NCBI GenBank assembly: GCA_017619815.1
Contig: JAFZRR010000062.1
Coordinates: forward strand, 18,963 to 82,962
DNA length: 64,000 bases
Direction of reading: 5' to 3'
Source of the DNA: Bacilli bacterium
GTDB taxonomy: Bacteria; Bacillota_I; Bacilli_A; RFN20; CAG-826
The position numbers and the translations under genes were made by a program. Below are positions 7,482 to 43,115 of this stretch, one piece after another. The notes beneath the pieces were generated by a model. It saw only the letters and a program-made list of their open reading frames with translations, was not told where the DNA came from and ran no database searches. Position 1 is the stretch's first letter. Every line of letters begins with the position of its first letter.

Positions 7482-7492
7482 TGATTATGTAA

Positions 7493-7620: not shown

Positions 7621-7676
7621 TAGTCCTTGGGACACATATTAATAAAAGACAAGCACTATTAAATTCAATTTTCAAT

Positions 7677-10625: not shown

Positions 10626-10636
10626 GAGGTGGACTT

Positions 10637-12187: not shown

Positions 12188-12239
12188 TTTTAATAAGCAA
12201 AAATTTGCTTATTATTTCCCCTTATATTAAACTATTACT

Positions 12240-14903: not shown

Positions 14904-14916
14904 AAAGAATTAATTT

Positions 14917-15696
14917 ATGTTTGGAAAAGACAAAAAAGAGAAAAAACCTAAAAGTAAAGCCAGGAAGATAATCGATTGGGTTGTCACTGGTGTCTTTGTG
15001 GCATTAATTACTGGAGTAGTCGTTGTCCAAATTATAAATAAAACAAGTAAGAACCAATTCGTCCTCGGACCTCAATATCAAAAGGTTCTTACAGACTCAA
15101 TGTCCCCTGTCTATAAAGTTAACGATATTATTGTCGTTGAAAAGACAAGTGCAGCAGATTTGTATAAAAGGGTGAATGAGAAACACCAAGATGTTGATCT
15201 TTCATTTAAATGGGATATTGATGGCCAAGAAGTTTCTATGACGCATAGACTTCAAACAGTGACGTATTCCGAGGAAGTCCAATTTGATCCAATCTCTGGC
15301 GTTGGATACCATTACACATTTGTCGCACATGGTATCAATAAAACCAGTGAATGGTGTAAAGGCACTGGTGGCTACTATGATTGTACAAATCAAACTCAAA
15401 CGTTCCATGAGGATGCAATCATAGGAAGAGTAACTAGAAAGAGTTACTTGATGACCTTTGCGACATCTATATGGGGATTACTAATATTATTATTAGTGCC
15501 TTGTATGTATCTCATCATTGCGAGTGTGCTTGATATATTCAAAGCGGTGAAAGATGATGATGAAGTTCCTGCAAATGGTGAAGTAGTGGGTGAAGCCAGT
15601 GATAAACCAAAAGATCCACTTGCTGGATTAAGTGAAAAAGAAAAAGAAAAACTCAAGAAGCAAATGCTTGATGAAATGTTAGGAAAGAAAAAATAG
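14917..15696 (+). CDS. sipW: SipW-type (S26B, archaeal/ER-type) signal peptidase I
   Basis: The N-terminal TM is followed by 'VLTDSMSPVYKVNDIIVVEK' (B. subtilis SipW has 'VLSGSMEPTFKTGSLIAVKK', catalytic Ser). The catalytic His context 'SMTHRLQTV' parallels SipW 'AVTHRIVDI'. There is a C-terminal TM anchor and a KE-rich tail. Confidence 0.75.
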   Translation: MFGKDKKEKKPKSKARKIIDWVVTGVFVALITGVVVVQIINKTSKNQFVLGPQYQKVLTDSMSPVYKVNDIIVVEKTSAADLYKRVNEKHQDVDLSFKWDIDGQEVSMTHRLQTVTYSEEVQFDPISGVGYHYTFVAHGINKTSEWCKGTGGYYDCTNQTQTFHEDAIIGRVTRKSYLMTFATSIWGLLILLLVPCMYLIIASVLDIFKAVKDDDEVPANGEVVGEASDKPKDPLAGLSEKEKEKLKKQMLDEMLGKKK

Positions 15697-15717
15697 TTAG
15701 AAAGGAGAAGCGAAAGT

Positions 15718-17253: not shown

Positions 17254-17254
17254 T

Positions 17255-17992
17255 ATGATTTTGATCGTTGGCAGTAATCATGATGATGTCATCTATTTTC
17301 AAAGTGCATTAAAAGACGCTAAAGAAGAAATTATTCTTAACAAGTATCGTGCATCTATCGGCACCATCCTCAATCAAAACGTGATGGTTCTTCAAGATGT
17401 CTATACATCCTATGTTAGCAGTGCATTATTAACTCATATCATTGAGAAATACTTCGTTCTCATGGTATTTGTCGTCGGCACATGTTTTGCGCAAAATAAA
17501 GCCTTAAAAGTGGGAGATATCGCTATCAGCGAAATGGCGACATTTGGTGATGTTGATCAAATCAAAATGCTCAAAGGTACAAATCTTGGTCAAATCCCAG
17601 GATACCCACAACTCTTCTATTCCCATAAAGAATTAATTAGAAATATGGAAGAAGCTCTCAACAGTGTTGGAGCGAATAACTATATGCGCTGCACATTTAT
17701 GAATTCTTCCTACTATAGAAGAGATGAACAATTAATCGAAGAATTATCAATGGAAGATAATATCGCAAATAGAAATAAGAACACTGTCCTTGATGGTGTG
17801 ACAACTGGTGTTGCTTTAGCGGCACATCTATTTGATATTCCATTTATTTCCGTCAAAGTCATTGAAGGACAAGCTGGACAAAGAACATCCATTGATTCAT
17901 ATATGACAATTCTTGAAGAATATAGTGTTGTCGGAAAAGCCGTTACTGTCTGTATTGGTGAAATCAGCCGTAACGATGTTTTGAGAGGATAA
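17255..17992 (+). CDS. MTA/SAH-nucleosidase (Pfs/PNP_UDP_1) family protein, divergent at catalytic positions
   Basis: The start was moved to ATG 17255, which has RBS AGAGGAGG. 'KVGDIAISEMATFGDVDQ' matches Pfs 'KVGDIVVSDEARYHDADV', 'IPGYP' matches 'LPGCP', and 'VTTGVALAAHLFDIPFISVKVIEG' matches '[25 protein letters not shown]'. The Pfs catalytic Asp197 and Glu174 equivalents appear to be replaced by G and D. Confidence 0.55.
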   Translation: MILIVGSNHDDVIYFQSALKDAKEEIILNKYRASIGTILNQNVMVLQDVYTSYVSSALLTHIIEKYFVLMVFVVGTCFAQNKALKVGDIAISEMATFGDVDQIKMLKGTNLGQIPGYPQLFYSHKELIRNMEEALNSVGANNYMRCTFMNSSYYRRDEQLIEELSMEDNIANRNKNTVLDGVTTGVALAAHLFDIPFISVKVIEGQAGQRTSIDSYMTILEEYSVVGKAVTVCIGEISRNDVLRG

Positions 17993-17997
17993 TAATT

Positions 17998-20900
17998 ATG
18001 AAACAAAAACAACAATCCTCATTAAGAACATATATTTCTAAGAGTTACTTAGCTTTAATCATTATCGCAGCGGTGATGATTATTTCACTAGGTTTATTCT
18101 TAGTTGGTTTTATCGTTTTAGATGGAACGCTTCAATTAGTATTTGAAATAGTGGGTGGCTCTCTCTTACTACTTTCACTTATTGGAGTATTTGTTTTATT
18201 CATTCTTTCATCCGAAAAACAATATAACTTGTTCTATAACACCCTTTACAAGGGAAGTATGAAGAACTTAGAAGCTATTAAAGATAGAAATTTAGAAGTT
18301 GATCAAATTCCTGATGAATCAGTGAAAGAATTCCAAGAAATTAACGAAATCTTCAATGATATTAATGATCAATATAAAGGCAAAATTATTACTTCTAAAG
18401 AAGGCGATATTGAGAATATCCCATTAGAATACTTTGATGATGAAAAAGTATTGGTCAGCTATGACTCATTGATGAATAACATCGTTGATTTAATTATTGT
18501 TACCAAATCATTTAGAAATGCTTTAGTGGAAATCTATTATGACTTACAAGCGGAAGATATCTCTGAAAACGATGAGAAGAGAATCTTAAATAAGATTAAA
18601 GAAGGTCTTCAATATAAGAACTTATTAATTTCTAAGAACAAGAAACAAAATGGTTTCATTATTTATGTTCCTGTCTTTGATAGTGTTTCTCAACTTCAAG
18701 AAGAAATCGAAGGCTTGTTCCGTCACATTTCTATTATCAAGAGAACAAATGAAGGTAGAAAGATTGTCGCTCCAAAAGTAGCGATAGTTATTTATCCATA
18801 TTCTTCACCAGAAAATATGGTCAATGATTTAGCAATCGCAAAGAGAAGTGATAAGACAATTAATGTCTTCTTACCATCTAAAGAAAATAAAGCTAATAAT
18901 TCTCCATTATTCGAAAATCTCAATGTTAATGAATTAGCAAAGATATCTGAAAGATTGGATTTATTAGATATCGATGATGTTGATGGTCAAAAAGAAATCA
19001 ATCGCGCCTTGAATGATATTTGTAATTACTTCTCATTCACATCTGTTGGCTACGCAAAACTCAATAAAGTTAAGAAACAATTCCTTTGTGAATATTCATA
19101 TTCTCCAGAAGAAAAACACTTAGTATTACAAGAAAAACCAATCTCCGCGAAGTTTATCAATAAATTAGTGGAAGTTAAAGATAGTGATCAATCTTACTAT
19201 TTCAGCAATAGACAACACCTTAATGATTCTTTAGCGGCGTTTATCGATAGTCACGAAATCAAATCTGGTTTGTTCTATCTCGTTATGAAAGATGGTATCG
19301 CTGTCGGTGTTATTTACTATCTCAATAACGATAAAGAGATGGAATACGATTGTTCCATCAAGCAAGGTTTAATTAATATTTCCAACAAGATTGGTAATTA
19401 CATCAAATCTATTGATGATCAACATATCGCAAATATCAACGCGAAGAGATTCCAAGAAGTCTTAAAACTCAATAATGATATTCTCTATTCTGTTAACCCA
19501 GATGATTATTCATTATTCTTTGTGTCCGCAGCGCTTCAATCTATTTGTCCAAGTGCACAAATAGGTGAGAAGTGTCATAAAGCCTTATATGGTAGTGATA
19601 CTCCATGTAAAGCTTGTCCACTTGTGACCAAGAAACATATGGTGGAAATCTTAAAACGTCGTAAATTTGAAACTAGTGTCGTTTTACATAACTCCGAAGA
19701 TAAAGCGGAACACCTATACTTAAAACCAATGGAAAAGAATAAGAATACAAGTGACTTGTTCTCACCTGATTTCTTAATCAATTCCTATTACTCCTTCTGC
19801 TCATACTTAGAAGATGAATTCGCCTTAGAACATGAAGGTGAAATCTTATTCTTAAATATCGATAACGTTCCTCAATTAATTAAATCATTAGGTAACGATG
19901 GTTATATCAAGGCGATTAGAAACTTCTTTGATGCTATTAGAGAAGAAATTGATATGAACTTAACATTATATTTATATAAGAATGATAACTTTGCGTTATT
20001 ATTCCCAAGCAGTTCAAAAGAAGATGTTATCTCTTTAACCGAATCCTTGTATAGCCTTGCTAAACAAAATATGGTGGGTAGCAAACAAGCTGCATTAAAC
20101 ATTTCTTACTATGACTTCAAATACCCTGAATCAAGCAAGGAATATAAATTATGGATAAATCATGCCGAAAAAGTCATGACAGGTCTCAGAAGAGGCAAAA
20201 AGACCGATTTAATTTACTTTAATGAAGATAAGTACACTAGAAGTGCTTCTAGAGAAGAATTCATGCTTCAAAATGTTCTCGAAGCCTTCAAGAGAAAGAA
20301 ATACTTCATGGAATATCAACCAATTGTTGGCAATAGAGATAGAGTTATCCATGGTGCTGAATTATTGCTCAGATTAAACGATCCATTTACCAATGCTCCA
20401 CTTAACATTGGTGAGGCAATCAATATCGTGACCAAACACAACCGTATTGATTTGGTCGCAGAAGCTATGACTGATTGTCTAGAAAAATTATTCCAAGTTG
20501 CGGATTTACCATTCTTCCAATCCATGGGCCTAGAACATTTATCTGTGAACGTTGATTATCAAACATTATCTGATAAATCATTTATTGAAAGCTTTGATTC
20601 TTTAACCAAGAAACATAACGTTCCAAAAGGATTTATCTGCTTTGAAGTTCCTGAATCTGACATTATGGATCATTATGATGAATTTAGAGATTTACACTTC
20701 GAAAACGAAGTCTTGGTGTGTGACCAATATCATGGTGAACTCTTAAGACTTGACCAATTACAAGCTATTGGATTTAAAGAAGTTAAGATGTCTAGAGACG
20801 TTATCTTAAATATCATTAATGATGACGTTGCCTTACAACGCGCGAATGATGTTTGGAAGTTTGCAAACGAAATCGGTATGTTTGTGACATTTGTCGGTGT

Positions 20901-21051
20901 TGAAAAACGTCAACAAGCTGACTTATTACATGATGATGTCCGTGATAGTAACTTCCAAGGTCGATTCTTCTATTCCCCAATGAGTGAAGAGAAGTTCTTC
21001 AAGACATTACGTGAATCCTCAATTAAATCAATTGCGGATTTAGATAACTAA
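17998..21051 (+). CDS. large membrane-anchored protein with a C-terminal degenerate EAL domain (candidate c-di-GMP sensor)
   Basis: There are 2 N-terminal TM helices and a Cys cluster, 'CPSAQIGEKCHKALYGSDTPCKACP'. The C-terminus 'EYQPIVGNRDRVIHGAELLLRL' is EAL-like with the catalytic E retained, but the DDFG(T/A)G metal-binding motif is replaced by 'DQYHGE'. 'FVGVEKRQQ' and 'QGRFFYSP' are retained. Confidence 0.65.
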   Translation: MKQKQQSSLRTYISKSYLALIIIAAVMIISLGLFLVGFIVLDGTLQLVFEIVGGSLLLLSLIGVFVLFILSSEKQYNLFYNTLYKGSMKNLEAIKDRNLEVDQIPDESVKEFQEINEIFNDINDQYKGKIITSKEGDIENIPLEYFDDEKVLVSYDSLMNNIVDLIIVTKSFRNALVEIYYDLQAEDISENDEKRILNKIKEGLQYKNLLISKNKKQNGFIIYVPVFDSVSQLQEEIEGLFRHISIIKRTNEGRKIVAPKVAIVIYPYSSPENMVNDLAIAKRSDKTINVFLPSKENKANNSPLFENLNVNELAKISERLDLLDIDDVDGQKEINRALNDICNYFSFTSVGYAKLNKVKKQFLCEYSYSPEEKHLVLQEKPISAKFINKLVEVKDSDQSYYFSNRQHLNDSLAAFIDSHEIKSGLFYLVMKDGIAVGVIYYLNNDKEMEYDCSIKQGLINISNKIGNYIKSIDDQHIANINAKRFQEVLKLNNDILYSVNPDDYSLFFVSAALQSICPSAQIGEKCHKALYGSDTPCKACPLVTKKHMVEILKRRKFETSVVLHNSEDKAEHLYLKPMEKNKNTSDLFSPDFLINSYYSFCSYLEDEFALEHEGEILFLNIDNVPQLIKSLGNDGYIKAIRNFFDAIREEIDMNLTLYLYKNDNFALLFPSSSKEDVISLTESLYSLAKQNMVGSKQAALNISYYDFKYPESSKEYKLWINHAEKVMTGLRRGKKTDLIYFNEDKYTRSASREEFMLQNVLEAFKRKKYFMEYQPIVGNRDRVIHGAELLLRLNDPFTNAPLNIGEAINIVTKHNRIDLVAEAMTDCLEKLFQVADLPFFQSMGLEHLSVNVDYQTLSDKSFIESFDSLTKKHNVPKGFICFEVPESDIMDHYDEFRDLHFENEVLVCDQYHGELLRLDQLQAIGFKEVKMSRDVILNIINDDVALQRANDVWKFANEIGMFVTFVGVEKRQQADLLHDDVRDSNFQGRFFYSPMSEEKFFKTLRESSIKSIADLDN

Positions 21052-21067
21052 TAAAACAAACAAAAAA

Positions 21068-21100
21068 GATGCCCAATACAAACAGGGCATCTTTTTCTTT
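21068..21100 (+). terminator. rho-independent terminator at the end of the + operon
   Basis: The hairpin GATGCCC-AATACAAACA-GGGCATC is followed by TTTTTCTTT. Confidence 0.75.
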
Positions 21101-21103
21101 ATC

Positions 21104-21158
21104 TATTAAAAAAGCTGGAAACCACCAGGTACATGACCGGTCTTGATACGAATCCAGC
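21104..21158 (-). terminator. rho-independent terminator at the end of the - operon
   Basis: On the - strand the GCUGGA...UCCAGC hairpin is followed by UUUUUUAAU. It is convergent with the previous terminator. Confidence 0.5.
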
Positions 21159-21202: not shown

Positions 21203-22516
21203 TTATTTCTCTTTCTTGACTGATTTCTTTTCTTTGCTTTTCCTGTTGATAATCAAACTCCTAAAGAAGTGCACTAAGAAGGTGATACAAACCACCAAGA
21301 CAACTATTTGAAGAATTGTGACGTTAAATAGAACCGCGATATATTTAGCCACTTTTGGTGCAAAATATGTACTGATTGCGGCGATTTCAAGTAACGAGAA
21401 GAATGCGCTTAATAGTGATATATATCCAACACCTAATTTATATGTATTGTTTTCTCTTCTGCTAACTCTAATGGTTTTAATCGCGTTAACAAATCTTAAG
21501 ATACCAAATGGAGCGATGATGAATAAGAATAATAAGATGTCTTTTCCTAATGTTGCGTCTGTTGTCATTAAGAATATTGCGGCGAATGTAATAACACCAG
21601 AGAAGAAGAAATAGGCAAAAGCATTGAATAAGAGTATAAAAGATGATTTGCGGTTTTCTGCAATTTTATTATCGCCAACTTGTTTCAATATCTTTCTGTG
21701 CCACAAGTAGTTGATTAATCTTATTAAACCTGTACCAAGATAGAATGCTGCTAAAACGATATAAACCCAGTGTTGTTTAGCATTTAATAAAGCAAGGATT
21801 GCTAGATACACTGTAAAGATTAATCCAAAGAACATTGCAACTTCATGTTCATTAAACCATCTAATGGTATGTTTGATTTTTGCCCCTGTAGAGAGTTCTT
21901 CTTTGGTTTTACTACGAATATCTGTGGATAACGCTAAAAGGGCGGCAATAATCGTAAAAGTGGCATTTAAGGCTACATCTATGATGTATACCCAGATAGG
22001 TTTATCACTAAAAGTGAATGTAAACGGATTTAAATTCTCTCCTGGGAAGAATTGATTCATTAACACTAATTCGAAAATAAGTATTAAATAAAATGAACTT
22101 AATAAATCATTATTACGATATGCATGTGAAAGTGGTGCATAGTTTTTCTTAATAGATATATGAAGTATTAATGAAATGAATAACTTTAATAACGCTACTC
22201 CACCAAAGATGAGATATGCAAGTGGCCAATATAACATTGTGTTATTTGGATCATTCCACAATGACATCACAAGTAAGTAGTCCATCATAATAACGACACT
22301 TATGACTTGGAATACACCTTGTACGCGCATGGCTTTATATTCATCTTTGATACCCATTGGAACAAAGATAAATAATCCTTCAAACATGAAGTGAACACCG
22401 ATAGTTATAAACCACCAGTTTTGAAGATATGAAAGATAAAAACAAAATCCGCCGATAGCGAAAGATGCTATAGCGGATATTATTTCTAATAAGATTGTTG
22501 AAGTTTTATTTTTCAT
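21203..22516 (-). CDS. polytopic membrane protein (about 12 TM), last gene of the riboswitch-2 operon
   Basis: It is hydrophobic throughout with a basic C-terminal tail, 'RKSKEKKSVKKEK'. No known family was recognised. Confidence 0.5.
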   Translation of the reverse strand: MKNKTSTILLEIISAIASFAIGGFCFYLSYLQNWWFITIGVHFMFEGLFIFVPMGIKDEYKAMRVQGVFQVISVVIMMDYLLVMSLWNDPNNTMLYWPLAYLIFGGVALLKLFISLILHISIKKNYAPLSHAYRNNDLLSSFYLILIFELVLMNQFFPGENLNPFTFTFSDKPIWVYIIDVALNATFTIIAALLALSTDIRSKTKEELSTGAKIKHTIRWFNEHEVAMFFGLIFTVYLAILALLNAKQHWVYIVLAAFYLGTGLIRLINYLWHRKILKQVGDNKIAENRKSSFILLFNAFAYFFFSGVITFAAIFLMTTDATLGKDILLFLFIIAPFGILRFVNAIKTIRVSRRENNTYKLGVGYISLLSAFFSLLEIAAISTYFAPKVAKYIAVLFNVTILQIVVLVVCITFLVHFFRSLIINRKSKEKKSVKKEK

Positions 22517-22566
22517 AAATCTTATTGTATAAGGATTGTTTTGATTTTAGTAGTAATAGTGCATCA

Positions 22567-25500
22567 TCAAGGCGTATTATTAGCCGGAATGGTAATTGAT
22601 ATCGTGCCAGTGTAATAAGTTGTCGATACACCATTTACTACAACGACTAATGTAGTGGCGTTGTTATCGTATTTAAAGAAGTTGATTATCAATGGTTCTG
22701 TTAGAACAGTTTTTGTTGAGTCAATAGTAACTGTGTAAGTTGTTCCTTGGAATGTTACATTGATTCCAACCTTTTGACCTGTTGCTGTGACATCGTAATA
22801 AATACTTAATGCGGAAAAATCAACTTGTTGTCCTCCAGCAACCGAACCTGTAAATGCGCCTGTGTTGGCATCATATGAAGCGCTTCTATAATCAACTTTA
22901 CCTCCATAGCCAATGTTGCCAGGAACAGCATTAAATGTGAACGTAACGTTTTCAATATGAACATCTGGAGAAGCCCCTAAGACGACTAGATATTTAGTCA
23001 TATCAGGATCATCAGCGGAGCAGTATTTAAATGGTTCAACAGCATCACCTACACCCTTAATACATGCATAGGCTAATGATTGAATATTTATTGCATTGAT
23101 ATTAAGTAAATATGACTTCCGGTCATTTGAAGGGCTCGTATCAACTGCCCCTGCCTCAACCAGATTTTCCGTCGTACCATCCGCTAATTTAAAGTATGGT
23201 ATTGTACTTGTCGAAGTACATTCAAATATCAAGGTACCCAAATCCCTTGATCCGTTATTATCAATCAATAGTGTGATTGCATTTTTGAATTGAACAGATG
23301 GGTAGAAATTATCGCCATTTGAAGGTGCAGAAATTACTGATGGACTTTGATTCATTTTCATGTATGTAGAATGATATTCAATATTTGGACCAACAGCATC
23401 CATACGGAATGGTTCAAAGTCATTGATTAAATCACCAACATATGTTGCCTTGTCAGCACTTGATTGTGCTAATTTATAGAGCTGAATTGAGGTTTGATTG
23501 CCGGTAAAACATGAGAAGTATCCGCTGTTCCACCTTGAATAATATTGTATTTTATTATGCGTGTAATTGCCTTGTGAAACAATGCTTGCCGTTCCATCGG
23601 TTAAAATAGAAATTGACCAGTTGGCATTTCCGTTAGTATCTGGTGTTGCCTCCGTTCGTAAATAGTTTTGGCTGGACGAACAGGCATACAAGAAGCCATT
23701 TCCAGAGTCAAATCGCCAACCAGTTTCAGTTCGGACAATGGTAAATCGTTGTGCATTGCTCGGCACGTTTTGAGCTTTAACGTATGGCGGTGCAAAGTTT
23801 ACGCTCGACGATCGATTTCGATAGTTGCTCGCTTGCGAGCCCATAAAGTAGTGGGTCGGTGTATTACCGCTTCCTGTCTTTGCGGCAATCATGACTTGAT
23901 CACCACTTTTAATTTCGCTAACAATATTTACTCTCTTCCAAACTTCTATCAAAGCATCAAAATATTGAACTTTACTTTGTGTCGTATTGAAATACACGTT
24001 ATAAGAAGGATTGACTGTAAAATTTGTATATTTTGCATAATCTGTTGGACTATTTTCTACATCTGAACCTAATAAGTCATAATAAGTCACTGTTTTAAAT
24101 GGGTGAATCGTGCCTTGAATTTCAATTGTTTTTGAAATTGTAAAATGGACGTTTTGAATGGTTTGACCGATTTGTTGCTTGTAAATATAGAACCAACATC
24201 TAACATTTGGATATCCATCATAGTCGTTATTAACATTTTCATTACTAAATCCAGTTGCGCCAGCAGCAACTACTTCAGGTTTTGCTAGATATGAAGATAA
24301 TGAATATGTAGCGAAAACATTACTTCTAATGTTGTAACATAGATATCTATCTGGATCACCGACATTTTGGAATCTATATCTTGTATAATATCCAGATTGA
24401 ACATATGGATCGAATTTCCATTGCGAATAAGGAATTCTATTTGAGTGTCCTTCTTCGTAGATTGTGTCGTAGTCGAATGTTCTTAGCCAGTTGGATCCAT
24501 TGGTTCCGTGTTCATAAACACCGTCGCCTTTTGGAAATGCTAAATAACCAGTTCCGTCATACAAAGTAAAAATTGTTTTTCCATCATTTGGATCTGTTCC
24601 AACTTCGTCAAAAATAAGTTTGGCAACACCGGTTGTTTCGTTTAAAACATAACCGCTTGTGTCTCTAACTTCTTTAACTTGTAAAACAGCACGGTTATTT
24701 TGTGTTTGTGTTCCCATCGCATAGTCGAGAGAATATGTGCTTGTTTGTTCGCCCTTATAACCAGCAATAACTAAAGTTGAGTCATCTACGATTTCTGATG
24801 AGTAGGAAGTTAATTTATAGTTAATAGCATCAGTTAATGTTGTTGTTTGCTCTTCGATATAATCACCAATAGTAAAGAATCCACCAGGACATTGAGCAGT
24901 CATTTTGTGACCGCCAAAAGCGCCAGCAGCGTTTGTAATATTTGAACCTTGTAAAGCACCCTTGTATGGGCCAGCAGTACGTCCAGCATTAGCATCAAAG
25001 TCATCGTTAACGTTGCGCTCATTACCTGTGAATTTATTATCAACTGCATCATATGAAATTTGAGTTTTTGGACCTCCAATAGTGAATTTCATTGGCATAT
25101 GTCGTTTGTTTGTTTCAACTTCTATTCCTTCTTCTGGAACGAAAATAGGAGTATGAACTAAATTTGCAGCCAAATATGGTTCGTCTGAATTAACGTTTTG
25201 TGGTGAATATGTGCAAAGATATTTTTGCCCAACTGGAGAATAAATATAGTAATCATTTTCGCCTGAACATTCTGTAAAACGGGAAACACCGTTACTGCCA
25301 AAAGATGTTTTAAAGCAGAAATAATAATCATCCGTTTGTGGTGGAGTACTACTCGTCCATTCAACCGGTAACATCTTGTCGTAAGCACCGTTTGCGCCTG
25401 CAACATAATGCAAGAAATATTTTTTGGTAACACTGTTGACTGTTTGTTCAAAAGAAATAGTGAAACAGTTTAATTCAACTGTGCCTTGTGATGATTCGTT

Positions 25501-26883
25501 TGTGGCGACAACTTCAGCATATTTCCATTTTTCGTTTGTGGCATCATAGAAAATGTAAGAGCCGTCATTCATGCCATAGAAATCATATCTACTTTCATTA
25601 CCATGGTTAATTGGTTCTGTTGGATCACCATTTTCATCAACACCATATTCAATATATACTGGCTTTTCAGTTAAAATGTTTTCTGGTTCGACGTGTTCAA
25701 TTCCTTTATAGTGTTGAGCATTATCGTTCGGATCGTAATAACGGATATATTTAGATGAACCGGCATCACCAGAAGAGTAACCTATTGATGATAATGAATA
25801 TGGTTTTGTCCCGCTATTACCATCTTGTCCAATTGTGTAAACTTCATTTGAAGAAGAAACAGCATTGCTAAATGTTTTGCCTGGACTTGTTTCGCTTGTA
25901 TATCTTCTAGCTAATGGGTTGCTATAACCTGTTGAGTATGTATAGGCTAGTGCATCATATGCGTTAGATGCAACTAATTGAGATGTGTAACTACTAGAAT
26001 CAGATGTCGATTCAAGAGGTTCATCAGTATGACCAAAATAACCATATGTATTGATCATTTCATATGTGTTGTTTCTGTCGTTATATATAACGCAGTTGTT
26101 TAAATAAACGTTATAGAAAACATTTGGATTATAAACATGTCCTGCTAAATATCCAACATATACGTGAGATCTATGCGCGGCATGCCCAATAGAACCAGGA
26201 GCATCACCAACAGCACCACCAGCATTAATGGATGGAGAATCAAAATATAATTCATTCACGACAGCATTTGAGGCAACATAACCAAAAATGCCAACATCTG
26301 AATATCCAGAACCATCAATATGTAGATTTTGGACTGTTAAATTATGACCGATTATATGACCTTCAAAAGGATGTCTTGCAGATCCTATAGGAGCTAATGC
26401 TAAAGAACCACTGTAATACTCCATGTTTAAGTAAGGAGTATATTCGCCTTCTTGAATAACACCATTATCGTTGTAATCATAGAAAAGATAAGGATATTCT
26501 GTTGTTTGCTGACCGTGTGGAACACTTGATGGTTTGCCAAATTGTTTTCCAAATTCAAAATACGTATTATTATCGAAACCATATTCGCCACCTTCATGCA
26601 ATCTAACCAAATTGTAATAGTGGACTGGCCTTGTAATGACATATGGATTATTGGCACTACCATGAGGATAAACACTCTCATCAATTTCGCCATCTCTTCT
26701 ATCGAAGTAACTAGTCAAAATAGAACTAGGAATATTTGTTTCTGGCTCAATTGTTTCCATGGCGCTAAACCAAGAAACGGTCGAAATAATTAAGGCCGCA
26801 CTTAAAGTTGCAATCACAGTCGATAATAATGTGATTAATCTTGCTTTTTTACTTCTAAATATTTTTAATTTTAGCAATTTCAT
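22567..26883 (-). CDS. giant secreted/surface protein (1438 aa), S/T/N/Y-rich, with a SipW-cognate-type signal
   Basis: The N-terminus is 'MKLLKLKIFRSKKARLITLLSTVIATLSAALIISTVSWFSAME'. It is low-complexity and adhesin-like. It lies 18 nt downstream of the 1491-aa gene. Confidence 0.65.
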   Translation of the reverse strand: MKLLKLKIFRSKKARLITLLSTVIATLSAALIISTVSWFSAMETIEPETNIPSSILTSYFDRRDGEIDESVYPHGSANNPYVITRPVHYYNLVRLHEGGEYGFDNNTYFEFGKQFGKPSSVPHGQQTTEYPYLFYDYNDNGVIQEGEYTPYLNMEYYSGSLALAPIGSARHPFEGHIIGHNLTVQNLHIDGSGYSDVGIFGYVASNAVVNELYFDSPSINAGGAVGDAPGSIGHAAHRSHVYVGYLAGHVYNPNVFYNVYLNNCVIYNDRNNTYEMINTYGYFGHTDEPLESTSDSSSYTSQLVASNAYDALAYTYSTGYSNPLARRYTSETSPGKTFSNAVSSSNEVYTIGQDGNSGTKPYSLSSIGYSSGDAGSSKYIRYYDPNDNAQHYKGIEHVEPENILTEKPVYIEYGVDENGDPTEPINHGNESRYDFYGMNDGSYIFYDATNEKWKYAEVVATNESSQGTVELNCFTISFEQTVNSVTKKYFLHYVAGANGAYDKMLPVEWTSSTPPQTDDYYFCFKTSFGSNGVSRFTECSGENDYYIYSPVGQKYLCTYSPQNVNSDEPYLAANLVHTPIFVPEEGIEVETNKRHMPMKFTIGGPKTQISYDAVDNKFTGNERNVNDDFDANAGRTAGPYKGALQGSNITNAAGAFGGHKMTAQCPGGFFTIGDYIEEQTTTLTDAINYKLTSYSSEIVDDSTLVIAGYKGEQTSTYSLDYAMGTQTQNNRAVLQVKEVRDTSGYVLNETTGVAKLIFDEVGTDPNDGKTIFTLYDGTGYLAFPKGDGVYEHGTNGSNWLRTFDYDTIYEEGHSNRIPYSQWKFDPYVQSGYYTRYRFQNVGDPDRYLCYNIRSNVFATYSLSSYLAKPEVVAAGATGFSNENVNNDYDGYPNVRCWFYIYKQQIGQTIQNVHFTISKTIEIQGTIHPFKTVTYYDLLGSDVENSPTDYAKYTNFTVNPSYNVYFNTTQSKVQYFDALIEVWKRVNIVSEIKSGDQVMIAAKTGSGNTPTHYFMGSQASNYRNRSSSVNFAPPYVKAQNVPSNAQRFTIVRTETGWRFDSGNGFLYACSSSQNYLRTEATPDTNGNANWSISILTDGTASIVSQGNYTHNKIQYYSRWNSGYFSCFTGNQTSIQLYKLAQSSADKATYVGDLINDFEPFRMDAVGPNIEYHSTYMKMNQSPSVISAPSNGDNFYPSVQFKNAITLLIDNNGSRDLGTLIFECTSTSTIPYFKLADGTTENLVEAGAVDTSPSNDRKSYLLNINAINIQSLAYACIKGVGDAVEPFKYCSADDPDMTKYLVVLGASPDVHIENVTFTFNAVPGNIGYGGKVDYRSASYDANTGAFTGSVAGGQQVDFSALSIYYDVTATGQKVGINVTFQGTTYTVTIDSTKTVLTEPLIINFFKYDNNATTLVVVVNGVSTTYYTGTISITIPANNTP

Positions 26884-26901
26884 TGTTCGACCTCCTTATT
26901 A

Positions 26902-29900
26902 CTATGTTGATATTTTTGTATATGTTATTGTCAGATTCACTATTTGGCAGTTGTTATCATTAGTGACATATAACATAAAGTATGAATAACTTGTGTTTGT
27001 ATTTGTTAATGTAATTGTTGCACCTTTAACTGCTTTTGCTAAGTTTGTGGCATTTGACGGAGTAGTTAAAGCAGTTGCCCCATAACTAATACTTAATATT
27101 ACTTTTTCGGATGTGTTGTTTGAGTAAGTGAAAACAATTTGAGAAATATAATAACCACTTGGTGCACTAATATTTCTTAAATATGCACCAGTTTTACCGA
27201 ATAAAATATAAGTCGTAGATGATGGATTTGCTGCAGATGCTTTAGCACCATTTCCTCCACCGAAAACTAAACCAGCGCCATCACCCGTAAGAGTTTGATC
27301 GCCTTGCGTTCCTGTAATGCCATAGAAATTCTGTGTAAAATCAAGTGATATAACCACGGTATCGGATTGGCTTCCTCCGCTGCTAACCGTAATAGGTTGA
27401 GCACATGTTTTGCCTTGATATGTAATAGTTATAGAAGTATCGGTTGTTGTTAATTCATAAGATGTTGTTGGGCTGAATGTAAAGCCGCTCGAGTTGCTAG
27501 CATAAGAAACATCAGTTGTTGATCCATCATTGTAATGTAATGTGATTTCTAAACCAGTAGGATCAAATGTTTCTCCAGCTGTATATGCAATTTTTGTTGG
27601 AGCTGTTTTAACTGAAATGCTGACCAAAGAGACAACCGGTGCTACGTTTGTTTCGACTTTCTTATATAATTCAATACTCGATTGTGTGCTTGTGTATGGA
27701 ATGAAACGGCCACTTCCGTTGTTGTGATTGTATTGCAAACTACCACAGTCTGCATTTGTACTTGTTATTGTGGCTGTTCCACTGCTTATTGAAACAGTCC
27801 AAGTTCCAGTTCCGTTACTATCGTAGTTAATTTTCTTTGCTGCTTGGGTATATAATTGACCACTCGATGATGTAAATGTCCAAGCGCCTGTTGTACCGCC
27901 TACTGTAAATTCAACACCATCACATTTGAATGGAATTGTACCATTGTTATCAATTGTAACGGAGGCAGGCAATAACAAATCACCAGATTTTGCGCCAGCA
28001 ACCACATTGTATTGAGCACACCCAATTAATACTATGTCGCCAGCAGCTAATCCTGCAGTACTGGTAATCCTTTGATAAATATAATAGACAGGTCCTGTGC
28101 TAGACACAGTGATTGAATATGTCGTTTCTTTTGTAACACCACCTTCTGTATAAGTGATAGTAACTGTCTTTGAACCAGATGTTGACATATCTGGAGAACT
28201 AATTGTTAAATTTGGTGAGGAAGTGACATTTGCGGTCGTACCATCGCTATATGTTGCTGTAACAACACCATTTCCAATCGTAAATGTATCACCAACATTG
28301 AATGTTACTGTTTGTCCACTTATAGCAATTGATGATAATGTTTTAGTTAAATTTGACCAAGTTAAAGTGAATGTTGCTTCTACTGGATTGCCATTTGAAT
28401 CTAAATCAGTAGTGGTCGCTTTTATGGTTGCGCTTCCAGAAACAGAGTTAATAGAGATTTGTCCTGAACTTTGATTAATTGTTAATCCTGTTCCGCTTGT
28501 TATTGACCATGTAACATTGTTACTTGTTGTAGTATCGCTATATGTAACGAGTGCGGTTGGCGTCCAAACATATGGAATAGTTCCGTTTGAAACAGTCTTT
28601 GTTCCACTCGTTATATCGGTATTTCCATCTTTAATTGCTAATGACGTGACGGAAGCAAGTGTTCCTTGTTCGTAATAAATAGTGTAGCTTTCGCAATAAA
28701 GTGAGTTAACAGTTGCGGCAATTGTTAAAACAACATTTTGACCATTTTGAACTGTTAAATCATTAGTTATCATTGGTTCAACTGTGACGAAATTAGTTGA
28801 CCATGATCCATGCCAACTTGAATCATTAAAGTTAGCAGTGGCAATGGAAGAAATGGTGTTGCTTCCGACAACAGCGTTAAAATTACCAGCACCTTTATCG
28901 GAGTTGGATTTCATACTCAAAAGAATTCTTGTGATTTTATAACCTTTATAACCGCTTAAAGTTAAGGTCATTGAGTTACCTGCGGTTAATTGATATTTCT
29001 GATTATAAGTGGATGAATATATAGCACTCGAGCCAGATGGAACATCTCCTGATGCAGTAACTGCACTAGTAGATGTAATTGTGTAAGTTGCATATGTTTC
29101 CGAACCATCAGAAACCCTAATAATGCATGTATCTTTAATATTTGTGCCGTGAATAGTTGCAGTAAGGGTAGATGTACCTGCCGCCAAACCATAAACAGTA
29201 ATTGTTCCATTTTGTATTTCGAAGTTAGAACCTGTGTATGTGGTGGATGAAGTTAATACGGTTGCATCGGAGCTTGAAAATGATAAAGAACCTGATGTTC
29301 CTATGATTGACCAATCGACATCTCCATTAAACGAGAAGTCTAATGTTAAACTCGAGTTCAAAGTAATTACTTCATTCGTTCCATCAATATCTATATTGTA
29401 ATTGTAAATAGTGATTTTAAACGTCTTATCAGCGTAGAAGTCACCTAATGTTGCGCCGCCATTATAATGGACAAGAACTGAAAGGTTATTTCCTGAAATA
29501 TTTAATGTTTGACCATTAGCATAATATGTTCCGCCAATACTAAAAACACAATCTGATGTGACATCGATCTCACCAACTGTTGCAAAGTGTCCTGTAACGA
29601 CCAAACCACTTGTGTCGAATTGATCACCTTTAACATATGTTGTTTTAGTTGGTTGAGTTGTAATGGCAATATATTCAAGAACATCTGCTAAAACAGTGAT
29701 AGGGAATGAACCATTTTTTGTAGTACCTCTATCCGTATATGTAACATTAATGGTTTTTGGACTACCAATGTTAGTGAATACAGTTTTATTTGGAATTAAT
29801 GTTCCTTCGCCTGAAGTCGTGTAAGAGCAATCGGAAGTTACATTAAGTGTAAACGTATCATTATTAGGTTTTGTATATGTTGCGATACATGTTATGCCCC

Positions 29901-31332
29901 TTAAACTGAAATATTCACCGACACTATAAATTGCATCTGAACCTTGTGGTCCGGTAATAGATAAACTTGTTAAGGAAGCACTAATGATGTCATTTTCATG
30001 GAATCGATATAAACTAATGTCATTTTTGGACGTTCCATAATACGCAAATTTGGAATTAGCAGTGTCATATTGCATTTGCATTGAACTGTGTGCGGCAGAT
30101 TTAACAACAGCAGAAGTCCCGTTATATGCTAATGTATTAGACATATTTTCAGCACTAGAATTAGAAATGATGCCGTCTGTTGTTGTGTTGTTACCAACAT
30201 AGTAGTTGTTATCTGTGCGGTATGTTCCATTTGCTCTATCATATGTTAAAGAGGCATCATCAATTGCATCAGTTGAATAAACTGTGTCTTTTCCGTTTGA
30301 TATATAATCACCAATATTTAATTGGTTGTTGTTTGTATTGATACCACTTGATGATCCAATTGTTTCAGAGCCTGTTGCTTTTGAACCATCTAAAATTTGT
30401 TGGCTAGAATCTGTAATGTATGAAGATAAATATTGGCCGCTATAAGAGCCGCCAACATCATTCATACGAATGTATTTGCCTGTATTATTATTTCCATAGG
30501 TTGAAGTAGAAAAATCTCTAATATAGAAATCAATATTAGAAATATCACCAACAAGATTATGAATGGCATCTGTGGAATTAATATGGTCTTCAACGAAGCC
30601 ATCGACTAATTTTTCATTATATGAACACTCAATATAAACGATTGATTTTTTAATAGTACCAACATTATATAGTTCAGGAACAATTGTAATCTTGTTGCCG
30701 TTTTCTGGATCAACAGGTTGATTGTTCATCAAAGAGATAAACGTTGATGGTGTTTTTCTAGAAGCAAAATACGCAATAGAAGTTCTATACATTGCGTCTT
30801 CTTCATCTTTATAGGTTCCTTGGTCTTCTGAAATGCCAACACCAATTGGTATTGCAGTATCACTATTAAATGGTGTGTATGAAGTAGCGATGCATTGGAA
30901 TTGAACAACGTTCGAAGTTAATAATCTAATGCCATCAGCATCTGTTAATGTTGAACTAGCTAATTTGCGAACATCAATTTCAACTGCCTTCGTGGTTGTA
31001 TCCAATCCATTAGGAAAAGATAATTCGGTTCTGATAACGATATTTGAATAAACATTTCTAGCTTTAATGTATTGGTCGTAATCAGGCAATACAAATTCGC
31101 TTGCATCATTAGTAAAAGCAACACCCTTCTTTAGGTCGTCGTCATATTTTAGAATTGTAAAATTATCAATAATTAAATTTCTTGATGCCGATTTAATTGA
31201 AAGATTGGTGGAGTGTGTAACTTTATTAGAATTGTACCAGGCGAACGTGGCTGCGCCTGCAACTGCAACAGAAAAAGAAAGATTGGCGATTGCGCCTGCT
31301 AATGCTAAAACTTTCTTTTTACTTAGACTCAT
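26902..31332 (-). CDS. giant secreted/surface protein with multiple Big_3 (bacterial Ig-like) repeats and a SipW-cognate-type signal
   Basis: The likely start is ATG 31332, 'MSLSKKKVLALAGAIANLSFSVAVAGAATFAWYNSN'. The track start at 31377 lies inside the riboswitch terminator loop. Repeated Big_3-like units include 'TKTTYVKGDQFDTSGLVVTGHFATVGEIDVTSD', 'TKIAYTAGETFDPTGLEITLHYNDGSTTDVS' and 'VTFNVGDTFTIGNGVVTATYSDGTTANVT'. Confidence 0.7.
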   Translation of the reverse strand: MSLSKKKVLALAGAIANLSFSVAVAGAATFAWYNSNKVTHSTNLSIKSASRNLIIDNFTILKYDDDLKKGVAFTNDASEFVLPDYDQYIKARNVYSNIVIRTELSFPNGLDTTTKAVEIDVRKLASSTLTDADGIRLLTSNVVQFQCIATSYTPFNSDTAIPIGVGISEDQGTYKDEEDAMYRTSIAYFASRKTPSTFISLMNNQPVDPENGNKITIVPELYNVGTIKKSIVYIECSYNEKLVDGFVEDHINSTDAIHNLVGDISNIDFYIRDFSTSTYGNNNTGKYIRMNDVGGSYSGQYLSSYITDSSQQILDGSKATGSETIGSSSGINTNNNQLNIGDYISNGKDTVYSTDAIDDASLTYDRANGTYRTDNNYYVGNNTTTDGIISNSSAENMSNTLAYNGTSAVVKSAAHSSMQMQYDTANSKFAYYGTSKNDISLYRFHENDIISASLTSLSITGPQGSDAIYSVGEYFSLRGITCIATYTKPNNDTFTLNVTSDCSYTTSGEGTLIPNKTVFTNIGSPKTINVTYTDRGTTKNGSFPITVLADVLEYIAITTQPTKTTYVKGDQFDTSGLVVTGHFATVGEIDVTSDCVFSIGGTYYANGQTLNISGNNLSVLVHYNGGATLGDFYADKTFKITIYNYNIDIDGTNEVITLNSSLTLDFSFNGDVDWSIIGTSGSLSFSSSDATVLTSSTTYTGSNFEIQNGTITVYGLAAGTSTLTATIHGTNIKDTCIIRVSDGSETYATYTITSTSAVTASGDVPSGSSAIYSSTYNQKYQLTAGNSMTLTLSGYKGYKITRILLSMKSNSDKGAGNFNAVVGSNTISSIATANFNDSSWHGSWSTNFVTVEPMITNDLTVQNGQNVVLTIAATVNSLYCESYTIYYEQGTLASVTSLAIKDGNTDITSGTKTVSNGTIPYVWTPTALVTYSDTTTSNNVTWSITSGTGLTINQSSGQISINSVSGSATIKATTTDLDSNGNPVEATFTLTWSNLTKTLSSIAISGQTVTFNVGDTFTIGNGVVTATYSDGTTANVTSSPNLTISSPDMSTSGSKTVTITYTEGGVTKETTYSITVSSTGPVYYIYQRITSTAGLAAGDIVLIGCAQYNVVAGAKSGDLLLPASVTIDNNGTIPFKCDGVEFTVGGTTGAWTFTSSSGQLYTQAAKKINYDSNGTGTWTVSISSGTATITSTNADCGSLQYNHNNGSGRFIPYTSTQSSIELYKKVETNVAPVVSLVSISVKTAPTKIAYTAGETFDPTGLEITLHYNDGSTTDVSYASNSSGFTFSPTTSYELTTTDTSITITYQGKTCAQPITVSSGGSQSDTVVISLDFTQNFYGITGTQGDQTLTGDGAGLVFGGGNGAKASAANPSSTTYILFGKTGAYLRNISAPSGYYISQIVFTYSNNTSEKVILSISYGATALTTPSNATNLAKAVKGATITLTNTNTSYSYFMLYVTNDNNCQIVNLTITYTKIST

Positions 31333-31353
31333 TTTTAATTCTTCTTTCCTTAG

Positions 31354-31385
31354 AAATAAAAAACCGAAGTTTTTCATCCCCTCGG
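31354..31385 (-). terminator. riboswitch 2 expression-platform terminator
   Basis: On the - strand, CCGAGG-GGAUGAAAAA-CUUCGG is followed by UUUUUUAUUU. The 5' arm overlaps the 3' end of P1 (GUUGCC|GAGG). Confidence 0.55.
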
Positions 31386-31450
31386 CAACTGGCTGTCTTC
31401 GATTAAGACCCTATAGCTTTGCGTCACCACATCACTGTGGGTTTGCTATT
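31382..31450 (-). promoter_or_regulatory. c-di-GMP-I (GEMM-I) riboswitch aptamer 2
   Basis: On the - strand: AGCAAACC-[CACA-GUGA-UGUG]-GUGACGCAAAGCUAUAGGGUCUUAAUCGAAGACAGCCAGUUGCC. The P2 base pairs covary relative to aptamer 1 (CAGUA/UACUG becomes CACA/UGUG) while the conserved nucleotides are identical. Confidence 0.8.
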
Positions 31451-31460
31451 AACGTCTTAT

Positions 31461-31489
31461 ATTATATTTATATAAATAATATCACGCAA
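31461..31489 (-). promoter_or_regulatory. sigma-A-like promoter driving riboswitch 2
   Basis: On the - strand, TTGCGT is followed by a 17-nt spacer and TATAAT. The aptamer starts about 10 nt downstream of the -10. Confidence 0.45.
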
Positions 31490-31587: not shown

Positions 31588-32466
31588 ATGCCCACAGTTT
31601 ATAAAACCAATAGAATCAACATTAGATTATCTAATGAAGATAAAGACTTGTTAGAAGCCGCAGCAAAGAGAAATAGACAAAGTCTATCTTCTTACATTAT
31701 CAGCGCGGCTATTAGACAAGCAGATCATTCTGGTTATATAGAAGAATCTAATAACTCTCCATATAAATCCATCTGCAGCAAAGAAATTTTAGATTTTTAT
31801 TATTCTGCGGAGAATTATGTTTTAAGTTGTAGCAATGATTTAGAGAGAGTAAAGGAACTATATTTATCTACTATTAAGAGGAACAAAGAGGAAGCTAATA
31901 CATTCGCGAATAAATTAGTTTTAGTGAGGAAACAATTAGATGATGACTTAACCTTCTTCATGGATAGTGACCCTGCTGTGGATTCAAGAGAAGAAGTCAT
32001 ACTTGCGTATCCTGGTTTTAAGGCTATTAGATTTCATAGAATTGCTCATGAATTATATCTATTAAATGAAAAGCTGTTCGCAAGAATTATTGCAGAAGAG
32101 GCTCATAAAGAAACTGGTGTAGATATTCATCCAGGTGCTACAATTGGATCACCTTTCTTTATTGACCATGGCACCGGTATTGTTATTGGTGAAACCACAG
32201 TCATTGGTCAAAGAGTAAAGATATATCAATCAGTGACATTGGGAGCGTTATCATTAGCCAAAGGCAGTAAGATGAAAGGTGAAAAACGCCACCCTACAAT
32301 TGGTAATGATGTTACTATATATGCTGGTGTATCTATTTTAGGTGGAGATGTACAAATTGGTGATCGTGTCACAATTGGTAGTAACGTCTTCTTAACCGAA
32401 TCAATACCCGCGAATACGCGCGTATTAAATGGAAAACCAGAATTGGTTCTCCAAGAAAGAAAATAA
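31588..32466 (+). CDS. serine O-acetyltransferase (CysE-like) with an N-terminal RHH/TacA(DUF1778)-like extension
   Basis: 'LAYPGFKAIRFHRIAHELY', 'DIHPGATIGSPFFIDHGTGIVIGETTVIG' and 'IGNDVTIYAGVSILGGDVQIGDRVTIG' are CysE hexapeptide motifs. The N-terminus 'TNRINIRLSNEDKDLLEAAAKRNRQSLSSYII' resembles ribbon-helix-helix antitoxins. Confidence 0.7.
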   Translation: MPTVYKTNRINIRLSNEDKDLLEAAAKRNRQSLSSYIISAAIRQADHSGYIEESNNSPYKSICSKEILDFYYSAENYVLSCSNDLERVKELYLSTIKRNKEEANTFANKLVLVRKQLDDDLTFFMDSDPAVDSREEVILAYPGFKAIRFHRIAHELYLLNEKLFARIIAEEAHKETGVDIHPGATIGSPFFIDHGTGIVIGETTVIGQRVKIYQSVTLGALSLAKGSKMKGEKRHPTIGNDVTIYAGVSILGGDVQIGDRVTIGSNVFLTESIPANTRVLNGKPELVLQERK

Positions 32467-42988: not shown

Positions 42989-43115
42989 TGTCAATAAAAC
43001 AATTAAATGTTTTGCTGTTTAACTACATATTTTTTACTGAGTTTATCTTTCAATACTTGAAAATTCCCAATAAATACTTAAAATAGAAAATCTCACTATA
43101 TTGGAGGTGGGGATT

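Follow-up and report, generated by a model that had tools for sequence, protein, structure and literature searches.

What does a cyclic-dinucleotide riboswitch turn on when none of the genes behind it has a functional name? The question is raised by positions 21,203 to 31,332 of a 64,000-nucleotide stretch of DNA from a Bacilli bacterium (GenBank assembly GCA_017619815.1, contig JAFZRR010000062.1; hereafter the window, G+C 35%). Here three co-directional open reading frames (ORFs) on the minus strand, genes A, B and C, follow a cyclic di-GMP (c-di-GMP) riboswitch, riboswitch 2, as the initial annotation of the locus had stated. Our reading, to which we assign a probability of roughly 55%, is that the locus is a cyclic-dinucleotide-induced (ON) unit for two large, passenger-carrying members of a conserved cluster of surface proteins, so far undescribed, in uncultured Bacillota of gut and rumen. 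The elements concerned are the following.

31461..31489, minus strand: putative sigma-70-type promoter (TTGCGT, 17-nt spacer, TATAAT), read from the sequence
31381..31457, minus strand: c-di-GMP-I (GEMM-I) aptamer of riboswitch 2, Rfam RF01051
31354..31386, minus strand: expression platform, an intrinsic terminator with a 7-bp hairpin and a U-run
26902..31332, minus strand: gene A, 1476 amino acids (aa), start ATG at 31332
22567..26883, minus strand: gene B, 1438 aa, start 18 nt past the stop of A
21203..22516, minus strand: gene C, 437 aa, a polytopic membrane protein with about 12 transmembrane (TM) segments and short loops only
21062..21158, minus strand: two hairpin and T-run terminators after C, read from the sequence

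The aptamer (31457..31381, minus strand) matches the full Rfam model RF01051 (positions 1–87) with 57.6 bits against a gathering score of 35, and reaches 90 bits under our own covariance model, R1. A second aptamer in the window, riboswitch 1, is found by Rfam at 7485..7570 on the plus strand. Past the aptamer of riboswitch 2 the sequence reads GCCGAGG-GGAUGAAAAA-CUUCGGU-UUUUUAUUU, in which GCCGAGG (31386–31380) pairs with CUUCGGU (31369–31363) ahead of UUUUUUAUUU. The resulting hairpin has 7 bp and a ΔG of -9.3 kcal/mol, is followed by a U-run, and overlaps with its 5´ arm the last 6 nt of the aptamer match. Since GCCGAGG is common to the 3´ flank of the aptamer and the 5´ arm of the terminator, the two folds are expected to be mutually exclusive and the architecture is therefore that of an ON switch, in agreement with the original proposal. 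The overlap is kept in six of six close loci, and in more distant loci the terminator has a 10–12-bp stem whose 5´ arm is the conserved aptamer strand AGCCAGUUGCC. By inspection of sequences by eye, the same design is present in approximately 35 of 40 related riboswitches; an automated ON-switch classifier returned only 18 of 40, since the minimum free energy (MFE) folds had extended or re-paired outer stems. Riboswitch 1 has an ON-type terminator too (AGCCAGTTGCCT...AGGCAATGGCT, then a T-run). Together, anatomy and conservation support a transcriptional ON design for riboswitch 2. The putative promoter, whose TTGCGT/TATAAT motif recurs in the related locus L001 (related loci are numbered with the prefix L), would place the start of transcription at about the 5´ edge of the aptamer; it fell below threshold in a promoter scan, with a -35 hexamer matching at three of six positions.

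The transcription unit behind the switch can be drawn with some precision. Gene A had been listed at 26902..31377 and as 1491 aa long. The gene is real, but its length is to be revised: the ATG at 31377 sits inside the terminator hairpin without a ribosome-binding site and was rejected as a start, whereas the ATG at 31332, which gives 1476 aa, lies 11 nt after an AGGAAAG ribosome-binding site. Genes A and B are separated by 18 nt, with AAGGAGG preceding B, and are very likely co-transcribed. The spacer between B and C is 50 nt long; its ribosome-binding site is poor, and a TACAAT-like hexamer lies within it. Inspection of the sequence revealed no comparable hairpin and T-run in either spacer. 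Past C, terminator 1 (GCTGGA..TCCAGC, then T6; 21158–21108) is followed by terminator 2 (GATGCCC..GGGCATC, then T6; 21091–21062), which would also serve the convergent EAL gene on the plus strand. Because there is no hairpin between B and C and the first terminators appear only after C, it is probable that C belongs to the same transcript, so that the single operon originally suggested is the likely arrangement for all three genes. Exact copies of the A and C proteins are found in metagenome assemblies.

The proteins encoded by A and B each have a single N-terminal hydrophobic segment after a K/R-rich start, which argues that they are not cytoplasmic. At the end of this segment A reads A-T-F-A-W-Y-N-S and B reads S-T-V-S-W-F-S-A. 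The common motif, T-x-[AS]-W-[FY], is shared with three further products of the window (ORFs 5914..6762, 8440..9537 and 9537..10625) and with A-type and B-type proteins from Clostridia to Erysipelotrichaceae, and is retained in distant relatives of B. The tryptophan is W38 in B, invariant in 31 homologues, and W32 in A, the only invariant column in the alignment of the A N-domain family (A6). With hhalign the motif falls in register with GGTWA|AFND of TasA, the TasA sequence having been entered by hand. As the motif obeys the -3/-1 rule, with T at -3 and A or S at -1, A is predicted to be cleaved before W32 and B before W38. A candidate for the enzyme is encoded in the operon of riboswitch 1 (14917..15696, plus strand): its product resembles SipW, an ER/archaeal-type signal peptidase I (NCBIfam NF046067, E 1.3e-12; TIGR02228, E 3e-5), at 47.6 bits, far under the curated NF046067 cutoff of 190, and is presumed to process A and B. 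The invariant tryptophan motif offers a simple sequence handle for finding substrates.

Beyond the signal, A is a modular protein of which these parts could be placed.

31240..31332, minus strand: signal peptide, aa 1–31, ending A-T-F-A, hydrophobic segment aa 8–26
30508..31239, minus strand: conserved N-domain, aa 32–275, predicted beta-sandwich
29413..29982, minus strand: Big_3-like repeats 1 and 2, aa 451–545 and 546–640, motif at aa 469 and 566, from the repeat alignment
28105..28347, minus strand: Big_3 repeat 3, aa 996–1076, with PF07523 at aa 1010–1076 (E 5.7e-13)
27655..28089, minus strand: beta-trefoil-type domain, aa 1082–1226, common to B by BLASTP
27391..27645, minus strand: Big_3-like repeat 4, aa 1230–1314, motif YTAGETFDPTGL at aa 1250, from the alignment

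The order of modules is signal peptide, conserved N-domain, a poorly modelled trefoil-like region, two Big_3-like repeats, immunoglobulin (Ig)-like and beta-sandwich domains, Big_3, beta-trefoil, Big_3 and a C-terminal beta-sandwich. Pfam Big_3 (PF07523) matches with 49.4 bits against a gathering score of 21.2 and in three stretches at a lenient threshold; only repeat 3 passes the Pfam threshold. All four segments (aa 451–545, 546–640, 996–1076 and 1230–1314) align with one another and carry the motif Y-x-G-[DE]-x-F-D-x-x-G-L, which bears out the count of at least four repeats made at the outset. The protein is moderately rich in serine, threonine and asparagine (35% against a background of 21%) and is free of low-complexity tracts. 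Its residues 1007–1297 match residues 910–1204 of B (BLASTP, E 4.7e-12). Among homologues, conservation is highest in the N-terminal ~460 aa and not in the Ig array. AlphaFold2 (AF2) models aa 40–275 as a beta-sandwich with a predicted local distance difference test score (pLDDT) of 75–92; the rest is poor, and the overall pLDDT is 58. The N-domain is homologous to stand-alone proteins of 260–300 aa in other lineages, which are encoded directly upstream of B-type genes, and to the product of ORF 5914..6762 in the window. The secreted proteins p365 and p362 (8440..9537 and 9537..10625) were considered as further homologues of the N-domain and rejected, since only the signal motif aligns. ORF 5914..6762 lies upstream of riboswitch 1 in a unit of its own, with a small TM protein (6977..7369) and then a terminator near 7400–7430 behind it; listed as 5869..6762 (plus strand, 297 aa), it encodes 282 aa from the internal start at 5914, has the signal motif GTVAWYSS, and may represent a small paralogue with constitutive expression. 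Over 20% of its length, A is 36% identical to P0086, a protein that bears a nuclease.

Protein B, by contrast with A's Big_3 match, meets no family in Pfam or NCBIfam, and neither do ten distant B-type proteins in Pfam. Its parts are as follows.

26773..26883, minus strand: signal peptide or signal anchor, aa 1–37, ending S-T-V-S, hydrophobic segment aa 16–34
25984..26706, minus strand: conserved N-domain, aa ~60–300, predicted GLUG-type right-handed beta-helix
23464..25566, minus strand: predicted tandem beta-trefoil region, aa ~440–1140
22570..23463, minus strand: C-terminal region, aa 1141–1438, with conserved D, G and R and a faint jelly-roll-like match

The earlier statement that B has no recognisable domain is nevertheless not supported: an AF2 model of aa 1–1200 built with 31 sequences (mean pLDDT 78) predicts a GLUG-type beta-helix followed by tandem beta-trefoils, of which A has one of the same kind. 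Scores with Pfam Glug and M26_N were under threshold. A full-length profile of B found nothing significant among PDB sequences, the sole match being a GH16 glucanase at E 0.11 in the C-terminal region. The description of B as compositionally extreme was rejected, its content of serine, threonine and asparagine being 26% against 21% in other proteins of the window and its minimum entropy in any 40-aa window 3.2 bits. Invariant residues are mostly in the N-domain (G75, P80, D196, G198, F200, G201, Y202, H249 and N268). The family delimited by the N-terminal 300 aa comprises 434 of 1.84 billion cluster representatives, and these ~430 members all come from uncultured gut or rumen Bacillota. Taken together, the N-terminal segments and the modules that follow support the view of A and B as exported proteins composed of binding-type modules. 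Carbohydrate binding by the trefoils of B is offered as a hypothesis only, from the model.

Gene order in other genomes places A and B in a larger system. In five metagenome loci, with B identities of 25–58%, the order riboswitch, A-type gene, B-type gene is invariant and EAL, PNP_UDP_1 and EAL genes are always adjacent. A scan of one genome per GTDB species gave 39 loci in metagenome-assembled genomes (MAGs) that span Bacilli, Erysipelotrichaceae, Ruminococcus, Lachnospiraceae and other Clostridia. These were scanned with a covariance model based on aptamers of the cluster, and in about 30 of the 39 the B-type gene, or the A-type and B-type pair, has a same-strand riboswitch upstream. By iterative searches, about 34 of 38 loci have an A-type gene immediately before the B-type gene, often as the 260–300-aa N-domain alone (e.g. 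L030). Both types combine conserved N-modules with very variable lengths (600–2400 aa) and C-terminal domains. By this comparison, A and B are best seen as the core pair of the cluster, here enlarged with Ig, trefoil and beta-sandwich passengers.

The partner operon, on the plus strand, belongs to the same system.

7485..21051, plus strand: riboswitch-1 operon, same system as A and B
7677..8456, plus strand: TM protein
8440..9537 and 9537..10625, plus strand: two secreted proteins with a T-x-A-W-Y signal
10637..12187, plus strand: membrane-anchored AAA_5 ATPase
12240..14903, plus strand: DUF2357 protein
14917..15696, plus strand: SipW-like signal peptidase I
15718..17253, plus strand: EAL protein
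17228..17992, plus strand: PNP_UDP_1 protein
17998..21051, plus strand: GGDEF-EAL protein

Homologues of the SipW-like gene adjoin A and B in L001, L003, L005, L009, L011, L013 and L014. In three distant Clostridia (L019, L022 and L025) the B-type gene is followed directly by SipW-like, AAA_5 and DUF2357 genes. L022 has two units: riboswitch, a 258-aa protein, a p259-like protein and A-N in the first, and riboswitch, A-N, B, SipW, AAA_5, DUF2357 and again SipW in the second. From this single-operon order in distant loci it follows that the two convergent riboswitch operons of the window are, as judged from gene order, one ancestral cluster split in two. A search of the literature found no description of this cluster or system.

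A mechanism can be proposed from these parts. In the absence of ligand, the 3´ strand of the aptamer would pair with the downstream segment to form the intrinsic terminator; with ligand bound, the strand would be locked in the aptamer and RNA polymerase would read through into A, B and probably C. Proteins A and B would be exported by the Sec pathway and presumably cut at T-x-[AS]|W-[FY] by the SipW-like peptidase of the riboswitch-1 operon. Their N-modules, the A-N beta-sandwich and the GLUG-type beta-helix of B, would be specific to the system and hold A and B at the cell surface or in the matrix, with small paralogues that have the same signal motif probably taking part, and the variable C-terminal parts (Big_3/Ig stalks, beta-trefoil lectin-like modules and beta-sandwiches) would bind external ligands. 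A high level of second messenger may then lead to more attachment or aggregation, and the EAL phosphodiesterases encoded in the partner operon would act back on the signal. The steps that we infer are SipW-like cleavage, assembly, the binding of glycans and an adhesion phenotype. The putative adhesins of the initial annotation keep their export and their binding-type modules, but adhesion is one of the inferred steps and no wall anchor was found.

Several observations weigh against this reading. The terminator in the window is weak, with its 7 bp, and the unconstrained full-length MFE fold prefers another, A/U hairpin. The NCBIfam model for SipW-dependent signals (TIGR04088 class) has no match at E <= 10 in A or B, either full-length or as N-termini of 63 and 64 aa, so that the signal hidden Markov model (HMM) does not back the SipW-type signals first described, which are supported by the TasA-register motif and the linked peptidase; the peptidase itself has the low score given above. 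No homology of the A N-domain to TasA or camelysin was found by Pfam, by the A-N profile against PDB sequences, by hhalign or by Foldseek, which with this moderate model (overall pLDDT 58) returned nothing from the PDB at E < 0.001 and no TasA. With hhalign only the signal peptide aligned; a TasA/camelysin identity of the domain was rejected and a TasA-type donor-strand fibre for A and B is not supported. Neither protein has an LPXTG-like motif near its C-terminus, a C-terminal hydrophobic or TM segment, or a known wall-binding domain, as would be looked for in sortase-anchored, MSCRAMM-type proteins, and cell attachment is therefore unexplained if the signal is cleaved. The trefoils of B have no match to Pfam Ricin_B_lectin or RicinB_lectin_2 at E <= 10, and no QxW was seen by eye in one copy (aa ~980–1139). 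The aptamer leaves ligand specificity open through an A at the position equivalent to G20 of Vc2 (PMC6140456). Finally, all sequences come from MAGs or metagenomes (rumen, gut and similar sources), and none of the A and B homologues is functionally named.

Some of these points could be met by supposing that the N-terminal segment is not cleaved and that A and B are type-II signal-anchored membrane proteins under the same regulation and export, the Trp motif being an interfacial or recognition element instead of a cleavage site. An uncleaved anchor would explain how proteins without a sortase motif, C-terminal anchor or wall-binding domain are retained by the cell, and it would suit both the failure of the signal HMM and the AF2 model, in which aa 12–39 of B form one continuous helix. 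We nevertheless regard this as unlikely: the motif conforms to the -3/-1 rule and lines up with the cleaved TasA signal, and distant lineages also have a SipW-like peptidase, at times a pair of them, in the cluster, whose presence would make little sense if there were no substrates. It is very unlikely, in our estimate, that B, and possibly A, is mainly an enzyme or toxin-like effector, either a secreted enzyme modifying polysaccharide or matrix with a catalytic beta-helix and CBM13-like (carbohydrate-binding module) targeting trefoils, or a lectin-type toxin component. Invariant polar residues (D196, H249, N268 and R327) do cluster in the beta-helix and N-terminal region of B, toxin lectin subunits (MTX, HA33, Bin/Tpp and Cry35) and CBM-bearing glycosidases are among the best fold matches, the B-type gene is followed by extracellular Endonuclease_1 genes in L003 and L004, and one domain of A recurs in a protein that bears a nuclease. 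Against this, Pfam, NCBIfam and PDB sequence profiles reveal no catalytic family, no pore-forming or ADP-ribosyltransferase domain was found, and in IgA1 proteases the related GLUG/M26_N region is not known to be catalytic. A conserved N-module with highly variable, binding-type C-termini is the typical architecture of adhesins.

The remaining alternatives concern the two ends of the unit, the ligand of the switch and the membership of C. In the Vc2 riboswitch, G20 contacts one guanine of the ligand. In alignments numbered from the Rfam consensus, both window aptamers have A at the equivalent position and retain the sequence contexts of A47 and C92 (Vc2 numbering); among 42 orthologous and paralogous riboswitches of the cluster, the position is A in 17 and G in 25, and the aptamer of L004 scores best as the Rfam variant c-di-GMP-I-GGC (RF03167). 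Riboswitches for cyclic GMP-AMP (cGAMP) have A there, and the G20A mutant of Vc2 binds c-di-GMP at 53 nM and cGAMP at 120 nM (PMC6140456). That the switch senses 3´,3´-cGAMP instead of, or besides, c-di-GMP seems to us quite unlikely all the same. Where orthologous riboswitches precede the same genes, some have G and others A, which points to one common ligand, and genes of c-di-GMP metabolism (GGDEF and EAL) are within the cluster; both observations favour c-di-GMP. A cGAMP synthase was not noticed, although no systematic search for one was made. The natural alternation is a ready test set for the evolution of ligand specificity. As a separate observation, L018 (9020..9190) and L020 (4745..4900) have a second GACGCAAAGCUA...AGCCAG aptamer-like unit past the first, apparently tandem c-di-GMP-I aptamers before the A-type and B-type pair.

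For gene C, a promoter of its own and an unrelated role, in place of a single operon with A and B, are in our view less likely than not. Some 12 hydrophobic segments can be counted in the protein, whose K/R-rich loops alternate as they would in an N-in/C-in topology; it matches no family in Pfam or NCBIfam, in line with the unrecognised 12-TM protein reported at first; its database annotation is only 'MAG: hypothetical protein J5511_05555 [Bacilli bacterium]'. Its homologues number more than 150; of these, we looked at two (~50% identity), which stand alone in unrelated contexts free of riboswitches. Gene C follows B only in the closest relatives, L001 and L009, and is missing from L002–L005 and L010–L014; the 50-nt spacer with its poor ribosome-binding site and TACAAT-like hexamer would also suit a separate unit. 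On the other side are the lack of a hairpin and T-run between B and C, the two terminators past C, and the B–C order kept in L001 and L009. Whatever its transcript, C appears by synteny to be an accessory gene outside the conserved system. The suggestion that it is a dedicated glycosyltransferase or exporter for A and B does not hold: few A/B loci have it, its homologues occur elsewhere, no glycosyltransferase or transporter family matches, and its loops are all 30 aa or shorter.

Two known kinds of system resemble the locus as read here, namely an induced unit for exported, binding-type proteins. Riboswitches for c-di-GMP that turn on adhesins are known from a few cultured pathogens. In Clostridioides difficile, class-II ON riboswitches precede the adhesin and pilus genes CD2831, CD3246 and pilA1, and in Bacillus thuringiensis the class-I riboswitch Bc2 precedes the collagen-adhesion gene cap. 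The likeness lies in an aptamer in the 5´ leader, a termination platform and large secreted surface proteins with Ig-like repeats. However, the adhesins of C. difficile and B. thuringiensis are of known families and sortase-anchored through LPXTG, whereas A and B lack this motif and have family-specific N-modules without a Pfam model; their cluster includes a SipW-like peptidase, an AAA_5 ATPase and a DUF2357 protein, and their aptamer has A at the G20-equivalent position.

The other kind is the SipW fibre system, of which that of B. subtilis is regulated by SinR. SipW-dependent secretion of matrix fibre proteins is documented for tapA-sipW-tasA of B. subtilis, sipW-tasA-calY of B. cereus and sipW-bsaABC of C. 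perfringens (PMC7395162, PMC9674648, PMC10151520), the last being regulated by BsaR/BsaS (PMC7395162). As in these systems, which act in biofilm or sessile-state biology, an ER/archaeal-type signal peptidase is encoded with several secreted proteins whose signal peptides end in G/A-T-x-A followed by aromatic residues. The differences are that no homology to TasA, camelysin or BsaA was detected in the mature domains, that the substrates in the window include multidomain proteins of 1400 aa, and that the cluster adds a membrane AAA_5 ATPase, a DUF2357 protein and control by riboswitch. By analogy with the ON switches of C. difficile and B. thuringiensis and with SipW-dependent matrix proteins, a sessile-state logic is plausible.

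The predicted domains of B also have known counterparts. GLUG/Peptidase_M26_N beta-helices (PF07581, PF05342; PDB 3n6z) are found in streptococcal IgA1 proteases and giant surface proteins of Firmicutes. Compared with these, B has few rungs, no M26 peptidase domain and scores with Glug and M26_N below the Pfam thresholds, and its predicted beta-helix stands directly after the signal peptide as a family-defining N-module. The beta-trefoil fold in the model of B is that of ricin-B/HA33/MTX-type (CBM13-like) lectins, from which B differs in the missing Ricin_B_lectin match and QxW motif already described; beta-trefoils also occur in proteins that are not lectins, such as IL-1, FGF, fascin and MIR.

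What appears novel here is a riboswitch-controlled, adhesin-like operon of uncharacterised families within a conserved and undescribed cluster of riboswitch, A-type and B-type proteins, SipW-like peptidase, AAA_5 ATPase and DUF2357 protein. The locus shows the riboswitch–adhesin logic attached to protein families without a Pfam or NCBIfam model. Should the cluster build a surface structure, rumen and gut Firmicutes would have in it a major determinant of attachment or biofilm formation that has so far escaped notice, and the unusual McrBC-like membrane ATPase pair would gain a function. One bolder and tentative idea, which we hold at well below even odds, is that A and B are cargo-bearing subunits of an undescribed, cyclic-dinucleotide-induced surface-filament or matrix system. 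Its three defining features, taken jointly, would be a dedicated SipW-like peptidase that acts on a T-x-A|W-[FY] signal, an obligatory pair of A-N and B-N proteins, and a membrane-anchored McrB-like AAA_5 ATPase that acts with a DUF2357 (McrC-N-like) partner in assembly or export. Were this true, it would be an energy-dependent, SipW-linked pathway of surface assembly unlike sortase pili, type IV pili and TasA fibres.

Some further observations concern the surroundings. The AAA_5 and DUF2357 genes of the riboswitch-1 operon form a McrB/McrC-like pairing in a secretion context. The C-terminal half of the DUF2357 protein carries about ten tandem basic motifs, K-G-S-W-G-G-A-R-P-G-A-G-R-K-[RP]-K, joined by linkers rich in E, P and V; the repeat resembles an AT-hook or a terminase-small-subunit-like DNA-binding motif, which is unexpected beside secreted proteins. 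Genes for extracellular Endonuclease_1 proteins lie directly after the B-type gene in L003 (14002..17088, minus strand; also with Big_2 and LTD domains) and L004 (13946..15298, plus strand), and together with P0086 they hint at a link of the cluster to extracellular DNA. A membrane-bound GGDEF diguanylate cyclase is encoded 3 kb upstream of riboswitch 1 (3315..4466, plus strand). With the GGDEF protein, two EAL proteins and two riboswitches, synthesis, degradation and outputs of the signal would therefore be present within 30 kb.

Beside riboswitch 2, a divergent gene (31588..32466, plus strand) encodes a 292-aa fusion of a TacA1/NikA-like ribbon-helix-helix N-terminus to a hexapeptide-repeat, acetyltransferase-like C-terminus; L001 has a gene of equal length, likewise divergent and upstream of the riboswitch, with weak hits to the Pfam families of this one. 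Farther away, the window holds a further set of big secreted proteins, three members of the clostripain family (Peptidase_C11) encoded on the plus strand at 43101..44447, 44626..48606 and 53056..56214, two of which are large (1326 and 1052 aa) and have several Big_2 domains.

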